Made by a program: the position numbers and the translations under genes
IMG/VR virus record: IMGVR_UViG_2541047432_000025
DNA from: a virus
Lineage: Duplodnaviria > Heunggongvirae > Uroviricota > Caudoviricetes
DNA length: 7,099 nt
Strand: one strand, 5' to 3'
The notes under the pieces: model-generated
Told to the model about the DNA's origin: nothing
The model's database searches: none
Seen by the model: the letters and a program-made list of their open reading frames with translations, nothing else
Shown here: piece by piece, positions 1 to 7,099 of the stretch
Position numbering within the stretch: the stretch's first letter is position 1
Layout of the letters: each line of letters opens with the position of its first letter

Positions 1-27
1 CTTACCGGAATTGAAGCAGTTTTTACG

Positions 28-582
28 TCAAAAAGCAATAACTTTTTTCTCTATACCAAAAGCCATAACCATTGGTTTGTACAAAATAAATTCTGCCACC
101 TTTAGCCAATGCTCAATGCGTCTTTCACAGGTTCTTAAACTCCATTCCGGATGTGCATCATTCAGCAATTCAGCCATTTTGCGCTTAGTCATCCCCCGCC
201 CCACATAACGCTGACTCAGAACATTGAGCAGCCCGGGATAACCTGCCAGTACTTCACCAATAACCCTGTCGATTATTAACGCCTCTGAATCGGTACAATG
301 CACCAGCCAGCTTTTTTGCTTGCCGTTGATCATATCCCGCAAAAAAGCCTCAAGTTTAGGTTTGTCCAGACCTGCTTTTTTCATCCTCCGGAGCGCCTCG
401 TTAATTGCCGTTTTTGTCAGCTTTTTAGAGGTCAGCAACTGGTTGAACATATTTCCCGTCTTACCGCCGCCAATATACGACCAGCGCCCCCACATACGTA
501 GTTTCCCCTGAATCCAGACACTTTCCAGCGTGGTGAGACGAAGGTGCTCTCCGCTTTTTCCTGTGTTCGTTGGGTAAATCAT
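28..582 (-). CDS. Putative phage late-gene antiterminator Q-like protein, 184 aa from ATG at 582 (the ORF track extends the frame to a non-ATG start at 702)
   Basis: Long minus-strand ORF. The ATG at 582..580 overlaps the stop of the upstream YbcO-like gene (ATGA) and has AAGGA about 9 nt upstream. It is the last gene of a nin-like chain, where lambdoid phages place Q. W-G-x-W and downstream conserved-looking blocks resemble my recollection of 82/933W-type Q proteins, but this is not verified. Confidence 0.55.
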   Translation of the reverse strand: MIYPTNTGKSGEHLRLTTLESVWIQGKLRMWGRWSYIGGGKTGNMFNQLLTSKKLTKTAINEALRRMKKAGLDKPKLEAFLRDMINGKQKSWLVHCTDSEALIIDRVIGEVLAGYPGLLNVLSQRYVGRGMTKRKMAELLNDAHPEWSLRTCERRIEHWLKVAEFILYKPMVMAFGIEKKVIAF

Positions 583-869
583 AAATAACCGTCCTTTCTC
601 CAGATCTCTTGTGTGCGAAAAACACCTTCTGCATGCATCAGGCGCAATTCTTCTTTGGTGTAATCGCTGGTTTTTACTCTCCCGTCGATTAAATCGTGGC
701 ATGAGTTACAGGCAATCGCTGCCTGCATATCGTGTGGCTTTATCGCTGTTCCGCACGTTCCCGCCAGCCTGTAATGCGCCAGCACAGAGGTTTCGGGATT
801 GTGATTGCAGTAGCCAGGGATTCTGATCTGGCATATCTGGCCTTTAGCCGCTTTACGTAAATTCACCAT
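579..869 (-). CDS. ybcO: YbcO-like DUF1364 prophage protein (96 aa)
   Basis: 96-aa ORF with LRKAAKGQ-C-IRIPG-CN-NPETSVLAH near the N-terminus and IACNSCHD further on, matching the remembered E. coli DLP12 YbcO pattern. ATG at 869..867 overlaps the upstream stop (TAATG); GGAG lies about 8 nt upstream. Confidence 0.7.
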   Translation of the reverse strand: MVNLRKAAKGQICQIRIPGYCNHNPETSVLAHYRLAGTCGTAIKPHDMQAAIACNSCHDLIDGRVKTSDYTKEELRLMHAEGVFRTQEIWRKDGYL

Positions 870-1468
870 TACGCAAACTCCAGTAGTTGTGCGGCCACAT
901 TTTCAACTTCCTCCTGAGAGGAGAATTTACGGAACAGAATCCAGTTCCACAGCACATTCAGTACAGATTTATAAACCTGCTGAAACTCGACTTCGTCCAT
1001 ATTCGCAAAAGCGATGGATTTTGCCCGACGCCCACGGCTACCGTCCGGATAAATATGCTCGGTGTAAAATCCGGCCTGAATGGTTACCCACTCGCGGAAA
1101 GCCTCAAACGACTTTAGCAACGCCGTATCCCGGGTTCTACGAGTCGCAACGGTGTTAAGGTATTGCTCTGCGGCATCACTCAGGGCTGGCGTGTGTTCCC
1201 GACCAACTGATTCGCACAGGTAATCAACGAAACCAGACAGCAGTTCTCGTTCGCGAGGCGTGATCGCCCCACCGACCGGAGTCCAGTAATCGAATCCCAG
1301 TTGCAGGAGTTTGAAAAAACGCTTGTGGAATGCGTAGTTACGCACACGCTTAAAATCTGCGTGTATCCACTCACCTATTTTGATTTGATGCAGAAAATCG
1401 CAACTCTCCGGCGTCGCCGGGAGAAGTAAACCAGAAGAAGTTTGTTTGACCAGTTGTATATGCGCCAT
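869..1468 (-). CDS. Conserved lambdoid nin-region protein, DUF1367-like (199 aa)
   Basis: 199-aa ORF with ATG at 1468..1466 and phage-like GC. It sits immediately upstream of, and is translationally coupled to, the YbcO-like gene. The family name is from memory of the usual DUF1367/DUF1364 adjacency. Confidence 0.55.
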   Translation of the reverse strand: MAHIQLVKQTSSGLLLPATPESCDFLHQIKIGEWIHADFKRVRNYAFHKRFFKLLQLGFDYWTPVGGAITPRERELLSGFVDYLCESVGREHTPALSDAAEQYLNTVATRRTRDTALLKSFEAFREWVTIQAGFYTEHIYPDGSRGRRAKSIAFANMDEVEFQQVYKSVLNVLWNWILFRKFSSQEEVENVAAQLLEFA

Positions 1469-1887
1469 TTCTCAATCTCTCGATGGCGCAGTGCAGCAGA
1501 TGCCAGTTGTTCAAGCTAGCACGCAAATTGTAAACCAGAATGCCAGGAAAAAACAAAACCCGCCGAAGCTGGTTGTGTGCGGTTGCGTTGAAGTCTCCTA
1601 GCCAAAGAGTAGCGGTGACCACTCCCCGCCGATAATCTTAGTTGTTTAATTTCGTAAGCTAACTAGGCTAAAAGCTCTCTGTTGTCTGCCTGTTGTACAA
1701 TTAACAAAATGAACAACGAACTAGATATACCAACGCCAGAATGGTGCAACAAATCCCAAACAACACAGCAATGCAACAATAACATATGTTATTTTCCTCT
1801 CACGGGATTCAGTCCTGAATTCTCATAAAGCTAATCTTTTTTTAAAAACATACTGTTAGATCACATGCACTTTCTTTCTTAACATCG

Positions 1888-1915
1888 TTGACTTCGCATG
1901 CGAAGCGTTTAAAAT
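1888..1915 (+). promoter_or_regulatory. Sigma70-type promoter for the GHKL-ATPase operon, with a palindromic candidate operator in the spacer
   Basis: -35 TTGACT (1888-1893), 16-nt spacer, -10 TAAAAT (1910-1915). The spacer holds the perfect 14-bp palindrome CTTCGCATGCGAAG (1892-1905). An A/T tract lies upstream near 1830-1850. The ATG at 1968 is preceded by a weak GAGAG Shine-Dalgarno. Confidence 0.5.
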
Positions 1916-1967
1916 CAACAATTTGCACTTAAGGTATTTATTTTCCCAAACACATAGAGAGTAAATT

Positions 1968-3359
1968 ATGACTGAGAACACGACTCCAACAGCAGACTTT
2001 AGTCCTAGTAAAAGATTTTTTGTAAGTATGCTAACTCGAGATATCGACTTAAACGATGCCATACTTGATCTGCTTGATAACTGCGTCGATGGGGCTTTAC
2101 GTACAATAAAAGACACAAAAAAAACTTCAAAACCATATGAAGGATTTTATGCGAAACTTACGATTAATAAAGATGTCTTTATTATAGAAGACAATTGCGG
2201 AGGTATCCCTAAAAGCTTCCGAGAATATGCTTTTAAAATGGGACGACCCCATCAAAAAGAAGAAGAAAATGAAGGCACCGTTGGCGTCTATGGTATTGGT
2301 ATGAAAAGAGCCATTTTTAAAATGGGTAGAGATTGCTCAATACAATCGAATAATCCCGATGGCGCATTCACTGTAGATATAACACCTGATTGGATCGATG
2401 GTGATGGTTGGAAAATACCGATGCACGAGAGTGACTATGATAACAAAAATCCAACAGGCACAACTATAGAGATAAAAAAACTCCATTCTAATGTGGCACA
2501 AAAATTTAATGAGAGCACATATCTTACTGATCTCTTTTTACAGATAAAACACTCATTGTCATTTATTATTCAAAAAGGATTTAAAATAGAATTAAATGGA
2601 GTTGTTGTTGAACATAATCCGATTAACATCATAACTGATCATTCTAAAATAGAACCATACATATATAAAGCTAAAATAGACGATGTTGATATCGATTTAG
2701 TTGTTGGCTTCTATAAAAATTTAGAAGATGACAATGATGATGTTTTAGAAAAAAGGAGTTCTGATGATGCTGGATGGACTGTCATTTGCAATGACCGCGT
2801 TGTTCTATATTGTGATAAGACACATCTCACAGGTTGGGGCTTTGCTAATGTACCAAGGTTTCATACCCAATTTATAGCAATTTCTGGGGTTGTTCGCTTT
2901 ACCAGTAAAAACCCAGAAAAATTACCAATAACAACAACGAAACGAGGTGTCGATCTTAGTTCTACATTGTACAATGATGTACGAAATAAAATGATTGAAG
3001 GGATGATGCATTTTATTCGATTCACCAATCAGTGGAAAGGTGAGCATCTTGAAGAAGGGAAAAAATTACTTAAGTCAGCTCAGTCACATGAAGCTCAATC
3101 TTTATTTGAAATTACCCCACAATCAACTCCAGAAGATAAAAAAAATAACTGGTCCAACCCTAATAGAAACAAAAATGAGTGGCGATATACACCTAAGCTG
3201 CCTACCCCAGTAAAAAAAAGCTCTACTGTACGAATAATCTTCACCAGAGAGAAAGAAGATGTTAAAATTTTATCTAAATATTTCTTTGGACATGAAGATG
3301 CTAGCGCTTCTGATGTGGGGATGCAATGCTTTGATACGGTGATTGAAGAGGTGAAGTGA
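1968..3359 (+). CDS. GHKL (Bergerat-fold, MutL/MORC-like) ATPase domain protein, 463 aa
   Basis: N-box DLLDNCVDGA (D34-x3-N38-x2-D41, nt about 2067-2096), G1 box IEDNCGGIP (nt 2190-2207), G2 box GVYGIGMKRA (nt 2283-2300) and a GTTIEI motif about 50 aa later, in canonical GHKL order. The C-terminal 260 aa or so has no motif I recognise. Stop TGA at 3357-3359 overlaps the next start. Confidence 0.85.
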   Translation: MTENTTPTADFSPSKRFFVSMLTRDIDLNDAILDLLDNCVDGALRTIKDTKKTSKPYEGFYAKLTINKDVFIIEDNCGGIPKSFREYAFKMGRPHQKEEENEGTVGVYGIGMKRAIFKMGRDCSIQSNNPDGAFTVDITPDWIDGDGWKIPMHESDYDNKNPTGTTIEIKKLHSNVAQKFNESTYLTDLFLQIKHSLSFIIQKGFKIELNGVVVEHNPINIITDHSKIEPYIYKAKIDDVDIDLVVGFYKNLEDDNDDVLEKRSSDDAGWTVICNDRVVLYCDKTHLTGWGFANVPRFHTQFIAISGVVRFTSKNPEKLPITTTKRGVDLSSTLYNDVRNKMIEGMMHFIRFTNQWKGEHLEEGKKLLKSAQSHEAQSLFEITPQSTPEDKKNNWSNPNRNKNEWRYTPKLPTPVKKSSTVRIIFTREKEDVKILSKYFFGHEDASASDVGMQCFDTVIEEVK

Positions 3360-4348
3360 TGTCTGGACAATACATTCCCTATCACTTAAGGCATAATAAG
3401 TCTATTGATAGAGAGATTTTTCTCGAAAGCCTAAACCTCTTAAGCAAAAGACTAAATATTCAAGAATATACATATATAGGTTTTGGTGGTCCGATGCTTG
3501 AAGATTTTAGAATCATGCATAATCGTATCGCTCTTTCTGATATGATTTCTCTCGAAGAACAAGAGTCTACTCACATCAGACAAAAATATAATTTGCCTTA
3601 TAATTGTATTGATTGTAAGCTAATATCAGCTCATGACTTTATTCTTGATTATAGTTTTTCTAAACCATCAATAACATGGTTAGACTATGCCTCCCCGAAA
3701 AAAATACAAACGGATCTAGATGATATACACTTACTAAGTACTAAAGTAAGCTCTTTTGATATTTTGAAGGTCACCTTCCCCATAAATCCTAGTTCTTATT
3801 ACCAACGTAGAGTTGGAGAAAGTTTAGATATTTTTAAAGAAGCTTTTATTAATTCATTAAAATCATTGCTTGGGAAAAAGTATCTTGATTTTAATCTTCA
3901 GATATCAAATGCAGATCTTTCAGATCGTAAGATTAAAGCTCTTTTAATACGAATTATTACAAACGCTTTTAGATCAGCAATAGAACGTGGTCTTTCAGGA
4001 CGTAAGGATAAGATTCAGTATTACCCATTATCCTTAAATCAATATAATGATGGCAGTCATACCATGTTGACAATATCAGGTTTTTTCTCCTCAGAACAAG
4101 AATATATAGAGTTATCTAAGGCATGCGACCTTTCTAACTGGCAATTTTATTCAACAAATTGGGAAGACGTGCAAGAAATAGCAATACCAACACTAACAAT
4201 TAAAGAAAAGATAAATTTAGATAGTAAACTGCCTGATAAAGAAGCATATCAGGCAGCCGCTGAAGAGTTCTCTTTAAACGAAAATGAACGGGATAACTAT
4301 TATAAATACTATAGGTTATACCCTAACTTCCAAAGAATTATGGTTTAA
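3359..4348 (+). CDS. Hypothetical protein, translationally coupled partner of the GHKL ATPase (329 aa from ATG 3359; ORF track lists GTG at 3356)
   Basis: ATG at 3359 overlaps the upstream TGA (TGATG), with GAGGTG Shine-Dalgarno at 3347-3352. Uninterrupted 330-codon frame, K/I/L/S-rich as expected for an AT-rich gene. No catalytic motif identified by eye. Confidence 0.8.
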   Translation: MSGQYIPYHLRHNKSIDREIFLESLNLLSKRLNIQEYTYIGFGGPMLEDFRIMHNRIALSDMISLEEQESTHIRQKYNLPYNCIDCKLISAHDFILDYSFSKPSITWLDYASPKKIQTDLDDIHLLSTKVSSFDILKVTFPINPSSYYQRRVGESLDIFKEAFINSLKSLLGKKYLDFNLQISNADLSDRKIKALLIRIITNAFRSAIERGLSGRKDKIQYYPLSLNQYNDGSHTMLTISGFFSSEQEYIELSKACDLSNWQFYSTNWEDVQEIAIPTLTIKEKINLDSKLPDKEAYQAAAEEFSLNENERDNYYKYYRLYPNFQRIMV

Positions 4349-5467
4349 ATATTCGGGCTGTACTCTTTTATTTAATAAATTGTACAGCCCCTTTAATATA
4401 TATTCAGCAACTATTGGTGACACGCTATTTCCTATTTGTCTGAAACTATGCCATTTAGTTACATGAAAGCGAAACCAATCAGGGAAGCCTTGTAATCTAG
4501 CAGCTTCTCTTGGTGTAATCACTCTTGGATGATAAGGGTGGATCGGCCTGACGGCTTGAAAGCTTCCTTTATCTCTAGCGGTTCCCGCCCTTAAAGTCGG
4601 GCAAAAACCATTTGGATCTAATCTTGTAGATCTTGAAATTTTATCAGTTTCCCCAAAAGATAAGGAAGCATAACGCTCTTGGACGATTTTGCTATGTAAT
4701 GTTCCGGTACATCCAGATATGATATTATTTTTTAACTTAGCGATCGATTCTGTATCACCAACATTCCGAGGGATCTGCCCCCATAATTTTTCATAAAATC
4801 CCCCTTTTCGATCTTTTTTAATTGTTCGCCAACTCTCAGAGTCTGATTGCCAATTGGCATCGATAATATCTGGTAATCCATACAAAGCATCTTTTACAGT
4901 AACCGGATCAATCATTTTAGGCATAAATACTTCATCTGAAATATCAAGCTTCAATGATTTTTTTACACCGATAAAAAAATATCTAGTTCGAATAGTTGGA
5001 GCACCATAATCAGATGCTTTTACCTTGATGGGATCAAGAATATCATAATCACCGCTAACCAAATTAAATGCTTTATTTCTAATGCCAGAATATTTCTCTT
5101 GCATAATACCTGGAACATTTTCTGCCAAAAAGAATAATGGCTGTAATTCTGATACTAAACGGTAGAAATGCATGTAAAGCTGATTCCTGCTATCATCAGG
5201 ATTCCCCTTGCCTATTGAACTAAATCCTTGGCACGGAGGACCGCCAATAATACCATCTATGGGCATATCGTTTTTAAAAAAACCCTTAATTATTTCTGCA
5301 TTTAGTAAAGAAACATCTTCTTGGACGTGCAAACTTCTTGGAAAATTAATTGCGTGAGTATTAATAGCATGTTGATCAATTTCAACTGCCATTTTAACAT
5401 CAAATCCAGCACGTGCAGCACCAAGACTTAGACCTCCAACGCCAGAAAACAAATCTATTACATTCAT
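4316..5467 (-). CDS. DNA cytosine-5 methyltransferase, Dcm-family (383 aa)
   Basis: Canonical m5C-MTase motifs in order: I DLFSGVGG (FxGxGG), IV GGPPCQGFS with catalytic Cys79 (nt 5233..5231), VI FLAENVPG (ENV), VIII-like APTIRTRYFFIG, IX ITPREAARLQGFPDWFRF, X GNSVSP. A variable target-recognition region of about 150 aa lies between VIII and IX. The 3' end overlaps the partner gene by 33 bp. Confidence 0.9.
   Translation of the reverse strand: MNVIDLFSGVGGLSLGAARAGFDVKMAVEIDQHAINTHAINFPRSLHVQEDVSLLNAEIIKGFFKNDMPIDGIIGGPPCQGFSSIGKGNPDDSRNQLYMHFYRLVSELQPLFFLAENVPGIMQEKYSGIRNKAFNLVSGDYDILDPIKVKASDYGAPTIRTRYFFIGVKKSLKLDISDEVFMPKMIDPVTVKDALYGLPDIIDANWQSDSESWRTIKKDRKGGFYEKLWGQIPRNVGDTESIAKLKNNIISGCTGTLHSKIVQERYASLSFGETDKISRSTRLDPNGFCPTLRAGTARDKGSFQAVRPIHPYHPRVITPREAARLQGFPDWFRFHVTKWHSFRQIGNSVSPIVAEYILKGLYNLLNKRVQPEYLNHNSLEVRV
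4355..4390 (+). terminator. Possible stem-loop terminator for the ATPase-partner operon, embedded in the 3' coding end of the convergent methyltransferase
   Basis: GGGCTGTAC (4355-4363) pairs with GTACAGCCC (4382-4390) as a 9-bp stem around an AT-rich 18-nt loop, 7 nt after the partner stop codon. The downstream run CTTTAATATATATT is only moderately T-rich. Confidence 0.25.
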
Positions 5468-5499
5468 ATAGTTGCAACGTCTCTTATTAGTTTCTATGT

Positions 5500-5529
5500 A
5501 TTATAACACAACTGTTCTTGATGTTTTAA
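5500..5529 (-). promoter_or_regulatory. Putative extended -10 promoter for the methyltransferase
   Basis: On the minus strand TGTTATAAT (plus coordinates 5508..5500) is an extended -10 with a consensus TATAAT; a weak -35 (TAAAAC/TTAAAA) lies 17-18 nt upstream. It sits about 33 nt upstream of the MTase ATG at 5467. The 8-bp palindrome GTTGCAAC (5471-5478) is in the leader. Confidence 0.4.
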
Positions 5530-5729
5530 CCCCATAAGATAACCTCATAAAGGCTATCCCTTGAAAATACCGGATCGCATAAATTTAATCTTTCAAAACT
5601 ACTTGTCTATTAATCGAGCAATTTAAGGTTGTTTTAGTCATGTCGATACCGACATAGTTAACTAAACCCATTTCATCGTCCAACAAATGGGGGTAATACA
5701 CTTTGATTTATAGTCGGGTGGGTTTTTCT

Positions 5730-5765
5730 CTATCTGCCTTTGGTGTTCATGCCCAAGGCAGATAG
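5730..5765. repeat. Imperfect inverted repeat (stem-loop) in the spacer between cargo and phage genes
   Basis: CTATCTGCCTTTGG (5730-5743) and CCAAGGCAGATAG (5753-5765) form a stem of about 12-13 bp with one bulge around a 9-nt loop. There is no U-tract on either strand, so it is not a classical intrinsic terminator. Confidence 0.3.
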
Positions 5766-5898
5766 CCTCAAGCACCCGCAGCAATTCTACTTAACTCTCC
5801 TTTTCCCGCAAACCGTTTTTATCTCCAGCGACAAATCGAATACACAACCAGCACCACCGCCATTACTGTTCCTACATTTGCGAATGCTTCAGGCCAGG

Positions 5899-6294
5899 TC
5901 ATTGATTCACCTTCTGCTCAATATTTTTAAGGTCATTTTCCGCATACAGTATTGCAGTTCTTGCTGCCCGCAACCGTGCTTTGGTGTTCTTTTCTTCACG
6001 CTCGAGGCTGGCAACAGATTCTCGGAGCTGATCGTGTCTGTTATGAAGCTGTCTAATCTCTCTCACCACAGCCTCACCATCGTTCGCACACCGCAGAACA
6101 TACTGAAAAGGGTCCACAACACATCCGCACTGCAAGCACAGGATAACGTGATCCTGTTCATGAACCTCAATGGCCCGATGCTTACAGCTCTGTTGTGTGT
6201 AGTTTTTTCTGCCAGTTACTGTAATGTTCAGCAGCTTCTCTTCATCGCGCTTTGGCTGCACCAGTGTGATGATATTATCGCCTTCATTTTCCAT
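5899..6294 (-). CDS. Hypothetical phage protein with a Cys/His cluster (possible zinc ribbon) and charged C-terminal helix, 131 aa from ATG 6294 (ORF track lists GTG at 6369)
   Basis: ATG at 6294..6292 overlaps the upstream stop (TGATG) and has a strong AGGAGG Shine-Dalgarno 7 nt upstream. Contains C-x-H...C-x-x-C-x-C (SCKHRAIEVHEQDHVILCLQCGCV) and a C-terminal region rich in R/E/K/L. Confidence 0.7.
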   Translation of the reverse strand: MENEGDNIITLVQPKRDEEKLLNITVTGRKNYTQQSCKHRAIEVHEQDHVILCLQCGCVVDPFQYVLRCANDGEAVVREIRQLHNRHDQLRESVASLEREEKNTKARLRAARTAILYAENDLKNIEQKVNQ

Positions 6295-6953
6295 CAGTTC
6301 ACCTCCTGCGGCGGTTCTGGTAGCGGCATCCAGTGTGACGGTTTCCACGACGCACCAGGAATTATCCACCCATCATTAGCGTCAGGATGCCCCGGGATGT
6401 AAGTCGCCCACTTCATTCGCCAGTCACCTTTCCTGTCAAACTCCACGGCAACAAGAACGGCTGTTTTGGTATCCGGCATTCGCTCACTACAACTTATCCA
6501 ACCATCCGGAGTTACCGGAGAGTTGCCAGACAGCGCATTCTGCAACCGTTCCAGCTTAACGTATTCCTGAACCCTGTTTCCGTCGCACGCCTGAAGCCAT
6601 TGCTCAGCCTTTTGCGCATCAGTGTGAAAGGCACAAGTGCGACCGTCATCAAATTGCATTTCGTAGAGGTTAGCAATCTGTTCAAACTGCGTGTGTGGCA
6701 ACTTGTAAGTTTGGCTTACGAGTTCGGCTTCCAGTTCTGCTATGCGCTTCTCTGATGCTTCAAGTAACGCCTGCTTATCGCGTAGCGCTTCTTCCAGTTC
6801 AGCAACATGGCATTCACTATCAATAAGGTTGTTCTCTGCTGCTCCCAGCTCAACTCTCAGCTTCCCAACCGTAAGCGCAATCTCCTCGTTCTCCTGGTCG
6901 CGGCGTTTGATGTATTGCTGGTTTCTTTCCCGTTCATCCAGCAGTTCCAGCAC
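6294..6953 (-). CDS. Phage protein with coiled-coil-like N-terminal half and C-terminal DUF551-like domain (219 aa, GTG start)
   Basis: C-terminal segment WISCSERMPD...VLVAVEF...WIIPG...SHWMPLPEPP matches the remembered DUF551 pattern; the N-terminal half is heptad-like and E/L/A/K-rich. The only start near the frame opening is GTG at 6953, with AGAGG about 14 nt upstream; an in-frame stop lies at 7011-7013. Confidence 0.7.
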   Translation of the reverse strand: MLELLDERERNQQYIKRRDQENEEIALTVGKLRVELGAAENNLIDSECHVAELEEALRDKQALLEASEKRIAELEAELVSQTYKLPHTQFEQIANLYEMQFDDGRTCAFHTDAQKAEQWLQACDGNRVQEYVKLERLQNALSGNSPVTPDGWISCSERMPDTKTAVLVAVEFDRKGDWRMKWATYIPGHPDANDGWIIPGASWKPSHWMPLPEPPQEVN

Positions 6954-6973
6954 GGTAGCCGGGTTAGCCTCTG

Positions 6974-7099
6974 CTATGAATTCAGCGTTGCATAAGCCTG
7001 AGCATCTGTTTCAACCAGGCAGTTAACATGACATTCCGCAATCACGCCACCGGGTTCTCCTTTCCATTTTTGGCAAACAAAAACTCCTGTTAAATTGCC
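6974..7099 (-). CDS. 3' end of a minus-strand ORF running in from beyond the window (41 codons visible, start outside window)
   Basis: Manual translation of the minus strand from the window edge gives an open frame ending ...GVIAECHVNCLVETDAQAYATLNS, with stop TAG at 6976..6974, 20 nt upstream of the DUF551 gene's GTG. It is not in the ORF track because it has no start in the window. Confidence 0.3.
   Translation of the reverse strand, partial: GNLTGVFVCQKWKGEPGGVIAECHVNCLVETDAQAYATLNS

Follow-up and report, generated by a model that had tools for sequence, protein, structure and literature searches.

A stretch of viral DNA of 7,099 nucleotides (Caudoviricetes; IMG/VR record IMGVR_UViG_2541047432_000025), referred to here at its full length as the window, carries a cassette of three genes encoding a MORC-type GHKL ATPase, a protein coupled to it (hereafter the partner) and a C5 cytosine DNA methyltransferase ( Table 1 ). 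The partner almost certainly has a methyltransferase fold and belongs to Pfam family PF20553, and it is very probably an obligate partner of the MORC ATPase. The cassette as a whole is a horizontally mobile, restriction-modification (R-M)-like unit based on 5-methylcytosine (m5C), composed of the MORC ATPase, the PF20553 protein, a Dcm-like C5 methylase and sometimes a Vsr endonuclease, and carried as prophage cargo. It is somewhat probable that the ATPase-partner pair constitutes one arm of an m5C-linked defence module. The fuller reading, in which the partner is the S-adenosylmethionine (SAM)-binding subunit of a MORC complex and this complex serves an m5C-based defence module, one that may lack a nuclease, as its non-methylase arm, is the one preferred here, at about even chances.

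The partner matches PF20553 (Methyltransf_35, "putative O-methyltransferase") over residues 1-328, which align with profile positions 1-308 of 309 (E 2e-89; 300.4 bits against a cut-off of 27), and also matches PHROG 19983, the function of which is listed as unknown. All 57 homologue clusters recovered in a word-indexed search carry PF20553, as do 29 of 29 aligned homologues. An exhaustive profile search returned at least 2126 cluster representatives at 50% identity, with 1094 at E <1e-30. Since the 150 best matches listed are mostly 315-365 residues long, the partner is considered a stand-alone domain, and relaxed Pfam scans of 29 members of the family detected no second family.

An AlphaFold2 model of the partner, built from the homologue alignment (predicted local distance difference test score, pLDDT, 89.4; predicted template modelling score, pTM, 0.88), has the strand order of a class I methyltransferase, with seven strands (beta1 38-42, beta2 61-66, beta3 84-88, beta4 104-109, beta5 135-141 and a beta6/beta7 hairpin at 220-244). 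This Rossmann-type seven-stranded sheet is common to solved methyltransferases, among them RsmD-like enzymes (3p9n, 2ift), Trm1 (3axt), RlmI/RlmO and COMT, with which the partner also shares the glycine loop that follows beta1, the acidic residue that closes beta2 and the aspartate that closes beta4. Sequence identity to these proteins is 5-15%, and the partner differs from them in its extra conserved elements, namely an N-terminal Y-H-L-R-x-N-K motif and a C-terminal helical region, besides a variable helical insert at about residues 141-220 with a mean identity of 21%. The kinship to other methyltransferases is visible at the fold level only: comparison with PDB chains by sequence gave chance-level matches (the best to HMG-CoA synthase, E 0.05), and profile comparison with the neighbouring C5 methylases gave no relation (hhalign probability 0.2%). 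The family, sequence and fold comparisons revealed no clear homologue among proteins unrelated to defence.

According to the secondary structure of the model, G41-F-G43-G44-P45 follows beta1, E66 ends beta2 and D109 ends beta4, as in the SAM-binding motifs of the fold. In an alignment of 198 sequences, 25-90% identical to the partner in the window, G43/G44, E66 and D109 are 92-100% conserved. The residues conserved in at least 91% of these sequences are Y8, R11, K14, R18, Y39, G43, G44, E48, D49, H54, E66, R74, Q75, N78, W107, D109, Y110, T139, Y229, D231, M236, T238, W261, P277 and E283. Given the modelled strand positions, the peptide YTYIGFGG (residues 37-44) corresponds to beta1 and the glycine-rich SAM loop. 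The position of motif IV is occupied by W107-L-D109-Y110, and a search for DNA-methylase motifs in the partner found W-L-D-Y-A at the end of beta4 and no (D/N/S)PP(Y/F/W), PCQ or ENV. Modelling and conservation support the fold and a probable binding of SAM well, whereas the "O-" in the database name is a putative label only.

These results revise a preliminary description of the same DNA, read by eye, in which the partner had no recognisable motif, might be a new family and, should the module restrict DNA, was the prime candidate for the nuclease or target-recognition component. The full-length PF20553 match and the methyltransferase-fold model refute the first of these views, and the second does not hold for a protein already catalogued as PF20553, as PHROG 19983 and, at NCBI, under the name O-methyltransferase. 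The cassette is built from catalogued, uncharacterised families, and the partner is neither a new family nor motif-less. As to the third, the confident model is that of a class I SAM-methyltransferase and not of a known nuclease fold, none of the PD-(D/E)xK, HNH, GIY-YIG and PLD/HKD folds being found for the partner among the fold-search matches listed. The same description had stated that YTYIGFGG and HNKSID (residues 12-17) do not fit GIY-YIG or PLD spacing, and conservation and fold bear this out. The GIY-YIG reading is rejected, its "YIG" being strand beta1 and both fold and conservation disagreeing with it; the PLD/HKD reading is also rejected, since neither H12 nor D17 is conserved in the family, the consensus of which is RQNKAIER.

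Direct reading of the DNA places the partner gene in a plus-strand open reading frame (ORF) that starts with the ATG at 3359 and encodes 329 residues; a mechanical ORF list starts it at GTG 3356, one codon earlier. The overlap with the ATPase gene and the Shine-Dalgarno sequence reported in the preliminary description are both present ( Table 1 ), and the same coding sequence is called by the NCBI Prokaryotic Genome Annotation Pipeline (WP_000016656.1, named O-methyltransferase) in a genome that has a 100%-identical copy of window positions 1700-5700. The ORF spans 330 codons in DNA of about 31% G+C, and comparison with a homologue of 85% identity gives a ratio of non-synonymous to synonymous substitutions (dN/dS) of about 0.07, with dS close to saturation. 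Its length at this G+C content, the dN/dS value, the size of the family and the conserved overlap all argue that the ORF is more than a chance occurrence.

The upstream ATPase has an S5 domain, with a basic finger and T323-T-K325, besides GHKL motifs I-IV, and its segment G269-WTIICND-R277-VV fits the MORC-specific signature GhXhhpXXRhl by which Iyer, Abhiman and Aravind defined the MORC family (PMC2292703). The C-terminal 130 residues are mostly helical, and no nuclease domain was found in the ATPase among the fold-search matches listed.

The association between the two proteins was assessed from both sides. A partner-side sample of 86 loci was assembled, 80 from one-genome-per-species contigs and six found earlier. 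The MORC ATPase lies directly upstream of the partner in 85 of them, the lone exception being cut by a contig end, and the hosts belong to Proteobacteria, Cyanobacteria, Firmicutes, Acidobacteriota, Chloroflexota, Verrucomicrobiota, Latescibacterota and other phyla. A C5 methylase occurs within 5.5 kb of the partner in 72 of the 86 loci, either upstream, downstream and co-directional, or convergent as is the PF00145 gene in the window, and a Vsr endonuclease occurs in 24. Besides the trio and Vsr, no gene recurs in more than six of the 86 loci, and no nuclease is conserved. The converse sample comprised metagenome loci, 80 in all, in which the ATPase is at least 42% identical; the partner follows the ATPase in 77 of the 79 that had room downstream. 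Two loci with ATPase and methylase and no partner (L174 and L221) were searched for a displacing gene such as a nuclease and none was found; they look like decayed or rearranged loci. Also, the partner ORF is truncated in one viral contig (L143, 5995-6369), a sign of decay.

The stop of the ATPase gene overlaps the start of the partner gene by 4 nt in 59 loci, 8 nt in eight and 1 nt in six (73 of 85 loci), and a purine-rich stretch precedes the partner start in most related loci. The coupled expression proposed in the preliminary description is borne out by this overlap, which is kept across phyla. The pairwise identities of partner and ATPase are strongly correlated (r 0.78), those of partner and methylase much less so (r 0.31); some pairs of loci have similar ATPase-partner pairs and very different methylases, and the converse is also seen. 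The partner evolves fastest of the three, with a median identity of 32% against 44% for the ATPase and 46% for the methylase. The near-constant adjacency seen in both samples and the correlated divergence support a probable physical complex of partner and ATPase, as had been supposed earlier.

In 2008 a role in R-M systems, alongside cytosine methylases and Vsr and perhaps through DNA looping, was predicted for prokaryotic MORCs from their gene neighbourhoods (PMC2292703). The assignment of the present cassette to an R-M-type module, made in the preliminary description, is supported in that the ATPase-partner pair occupies the place where the R gene or genes of a Dcm/Vsr-type system would sit. 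In the preferred reading, translational coupling would provide a fixed ratio of ATPase and partner, which would bind each other; coupling and co-evolution are observed, and binding is what we infer from them. The partner would hold SAM through its conserved glycine loop, E66 and D109, as fold and conservation suggest, either for methyl transfer or with the methyltransferase pocket serving as a mere sensor. The complex would then engage DNA that lacks the m5C mark of the cassette, and ATP-driven dimerisation of the MORC clamp would trap, loop or compact this unmarked DNA, such that replication or expression of the invader would be blocked, or the DNA handed to a host nuclease. The cognate C5 methylase would exempt host and prophage DNA. 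This last step is drawn wholly from gene position, from the lack of a conserved nuclease and from knowledge of MORC and MutL-type clamps, and the specific nuclease-free clamp mechanism is tentative and rather doubtful. The most far-reaching form, in which the MORC-PF20553 pair would be a nuclease-free immune effector whose SAM-loaded, methyltransferase-like sensor lets the MORC clamp entrap and compact m5C-lacking DNA and whose C5 methylase is exchangeable, is unlikely.

Several observations weigh against the preferred reading. In and beside the cassette, neither the comparison of the 86 loci nor the fold searches revealed a nuclease domain in a conserved gene, and because of this the term "restriction" applies by positional analogy only. 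Literature searches gave no experiment on the partner family, nor on bacterial MORCs. No PADLOC-DB 2.0 model matches the partner or the ATPase, and the methylase matches only the generic MTase_II model; NCBIfam likewise has no model for either protein, the similarity of the ATPase to MzaB (E 0.037) being far below the cut-off. In the ATPase, D34 (A-I-L-D34-L-L-D-N38) stands where other GHKL enzymes have the catalytic glutamate. By motif alignment, on which this equivalence relies, D34 is invariant in this MORC clade and lies four residues before the Mg-binding N38, and ATP turnover by such a MORC may be slow or differently controlled. Also, the median isoelectric points of partner (6.3) and ATPase (5.6) are mildly acidic, against 9.3 for the methylase, and lend no support to strong stand-alone DNA binding.

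A further point on this side concerns the specificity-subunit role proposed in the preliminary description. Divergence of the variable region of the partner does not follow that of the target recognition domain (TRD) of the methylase once ATPase divergence is controlled (partial r -0.14), an absence of co-variation not expected if the partner read the same target sequence. The proposal is weakened by this result, which is itself a weak negative because the alignment of the insert is poor (21% identity). Finally, six cyanobacterial loci (L015, L017-L021) hold the pair by itself amid housekeeping genes, with no linked C5 methylase, which points to vertical inheritance with reliance on a methylase encoded elsewhere, or else to another role. 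In these loci, whose hosts include Nostocales, the partner lies at about 7001-7990 and its glycine loop reads GFGGH, not GFGGP; in three of them (L015, L017, L021) the pair is found in a syntenic housekeeping context, between ndhF/ndhD-like genes.

As an alternative, the partner could be an active methyltransferase that places a second mark on DNA, RNA or a protein such as MORC, the cassette then being a dual-modification or regulatory module, for example for prophage anti-restriction or epigenetic control. Its SAM motifs look intact and are strongly conserved, but the W-L-D-Y at motif IV is neither (D/N/S)PP(Y/F/W) nor PCQ. The nearest folds are RNA and small-molecule methyltransferases, and K14, D109, K137 and D231 could, judging from the residues, be read as a K-D-K-E-like set of the kind found in 2'-O-ribose methyltransferases. 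The database name O-methyltransferase points the same way, yet it is a "putative" Pfam label for which no reference was found. The lack of a nuclease in the cassette would also be accounted for; however, an obligate, translationally coupled MORC ATPase would be left without a reason, and the trio with Vsr also occurs in non-phage chromosomal islands. We consider this alternative improbable.

Less probable still, and quite unlikely, is that the pair is a maintenance or repair accessory of the C5 methylase, in which the MutL-like MORC with its partner handles by-products of the methylase, for example T:G mismatches arising from m5C deamination and processed with Vsr, or steers the methylase. MORC is a relative of MutL, which assists Vsr repair (PMC2292703), and Vsr occurs in the 24 loci noted above, but the pair is present with or without it. 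That the pair tracks neither the TRD nor the core of the methylase is expected of a sequence-independent role, and cyanobacteria keep it at a syntenic chromosomal site; against this, the cassette travels with prophages and islands, as cargo at sites of the defence type. No repair function is evident for a methyltransferase fold, and the partner outpaces both ATPase and methylase in evolution, which is more typical of conflict genes.

Least likely, and very improbable, is the idea preferred in the preliminary description, namely that the partner is a cryptic restriction endonuclease subunit whose acidic residues E48, D49, D109, D134 and D231 bind metal and which, driven or placed by MORC, cuts unmethylated DNA: the diversity of restriction enzymes is well known, the partner holds the R position of a Dcm/Vsr-type R-M locus and several of its acidic residues are invariant, but the conserved acids lie at canonical SAM-binding positions and HxKxxD is not conserved.

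Methyltransferase-type proteins work together with an ATPase in the restricting machinery of Type III R-M systems (Mod/Res) and of BREX (PglX), the latter without a recognised nuclease, and in both a single methyltransferase marks self and guides restriction. In the present cassette, in contrast, marking falls to a separate, ordinary C5 methylase, and the partner lacks the DNA-methylase motif IV. Also, its ATPase is of the GHKL type, neither helicase nor AAA+, and the PADLOC models of both systems do not match. With the MORC and paraMORC R-M operons predicted in PMC2292703 the cassette shares the GHKL motifs, the S5 domain, the GhXhhpXXRhl signature, the links to cytosine methylase and Vsr, and a mobile, patchy occurrence. 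About 70% of the MORC neighbourhoods in that source include a superfamily 2 (SF2) helicase together with nucleases; the present cassette belongs to the helicase-free minority and has no nuclease. A methyltransferase-fold partner is not described in the available part of its text.

A second GHKL protein of about 585 residues, with an N-terminal DLxDNSIDA box, is paired with the methylase in three of the related loci (L026 8061-10968, L027 8602-11502 and L047 5640-8546). Its gene is placed between those of methylase and partner, giving a four-gene arrangement, and these three loci resemble the MORC plus paraMORC1 neighbourhoods of the same source (PMC2292703). Eukaryotic MORC2, MORC3 and SMCHD1, which are GHKL clamps linked to silencing associated with DNA methylation, carry CW, coiled-coil or hinge domains and have no PF20553 partner, unlike the bacterial ATPase. 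A functional parallel, in the sense of DNA being compacted according to its methylation state, would be conjecture.

The cassette was found in 173 of 5426 complete E. coli genomes (3%), always in the chromosome and always at least 99% identical; the carriers include O157:H7 and O111 prophages. A Yersinia lambdoid prophage has it in the nin region, adjoining DUF1367 as in the window, with a partner just 32% identical. In a P2-like Cronobacter prophage it lies between portal gene Q and replication gene A, an interval which we take to be the tin/old position, where defence cargo is known to accumulate. Integrase-flanked Pseudomonas islands carry the cassette with Vsr, and in Ralstonia the cassette and Vsr adjoin dnaA-dnaN-gyrB. 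The complete trio is present in all 49 IMG/VR viral contigs and the Pf phage PfAC20, save for one contig that ends inside the cassette.

In the filamentous Pseudomonas phage PfAC20 (L095, PP058144.1) the trio lies at 280-3711 with all three genes co-directional, and a second, short DNA cytosine methyltransferase gene is found at 5438-6082. The PfAC20 cassette has been scored as an incomplete R-M system, with the cytosine methyltransferase only (PMC11878078).

Table 1. Features of the cassette in the 7,099-nt window.
Feature	Position	Strand	Description
Promoter candidate	1888..1915	+	sigma-70-like TTGACT-16-TAAAAT, about 50 nt before the ATPase gene; 10/12 consensus matches
MORC-type GHKL ATPase	1968..3359	+	463 aa, WP_000138556.1; GHKL domain, S5 domain, helical C-terminal region
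Shine-Dalgarno GAGGTG	3348..3353	+	5 nt before the partner ATG, within the 3' end of the ATPase gene
Stop/start overlap TGATG	3357..3361	+	ATPase TGA 3357-3359 shares its A with partner ATG 3359-3361
Partner	3359..4348	+	329-aa PF20553 (Methyltransf_35) protein, class I SAM-methyltransferase fold
Convergent overlap	4316..4348		33 bp; 3' ends of partner gene and methylase gene
C5 cytosine DNA methyltransferase	4316..5467	-	383 aa, WP_001100703.1; modification arm
Hairpin GGGCTGTAC...GTACAGCCC	4355..4390		9-bp stem, 7 nt past the partner stop; inverted repeat I15
Promoter-like site	5500..5529	-	TTAAAA-18-TG-TATAAT, upstream of the methylase gene; best score of the region, consensus match only

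The modification arm of the cassette is readily recognised, with matches to PF00145 (E 2.6e-61), TIGR00675 and PADLOC MTase_II (2e-98). The hairpin past the partner stop falls in the poorly conserved C-terminal tail of the methylase coding sequence and is a possible terminator of the ATPase-partner operon, a role that is inferred, since the terminator scan did not call the hairpin. Opposing transcription of the partner and methylase genes could cause interference, as in certain R-M control circuits. The site in front of the ATPase gene is oriented opposite to the flanking phage genes, which lie on the minus strand, and is a candidate promoter only, because such sites are no commoner in the region than in shuffled sequences.

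The G+C content of the cassette is 31-38%, against 45-52% in the flanks. To the left lie lambdoid prophage genes on the minus strand (DUF1367, DUF1364 and the Q-like DUF1133; window 1-1468), and further to the right lambdoid prophage replication genes. These flanking genes place the cassette, as cargo, in the nin region, the prophage being a Rac-like one carried by E. coli O157:H7 and its relatives. The flanks are mosaic lambdoid prophage DNA. The cassette itself was absent from the phage records of the collection searched. Window positions 5720-7099 have 99.7% identity to DNA of O157:H7 Stx1/Stx2 phages (Sakai VT2, PA phages), in which this segment occupies a different genomic location. Also, the 156-aa mechanical ORF at 5899-6369 on the minus strand is probably over-extended, RefSeq calling 81 aa at 5899-6144 and, on the right of this, several more small genes of hypothetical product.

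The MORC-PF20553 cassette is widespread and unusual in having no recognisable nuclease, and loci of this kind are currently labelled "incomplete R-M" by annotation tools. Should the partner instead be an ordinary methyltransferase, the result would amount to a routine refinement of annotation. If the pair restricts foreign DNA, a widespread module would be added to the catalogue of defence systems, and it would offer the first experimental handle on the bacterial MORC ATPases, predicted for R-M in 2008. It may then also reveal the way in which cytosine methylation is read by a GHKL clamp together with a methyltransferase-fold protein, a matter that bears on the origin of eukaryotic MORC silencing. 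If the pair were a nuclease-free effector, it would be a prokaryotic counterpart, and possibly an ancestor, of the eukaryotic link between MORC/SMCHD1 ATPases and DNA-methylation silencing.

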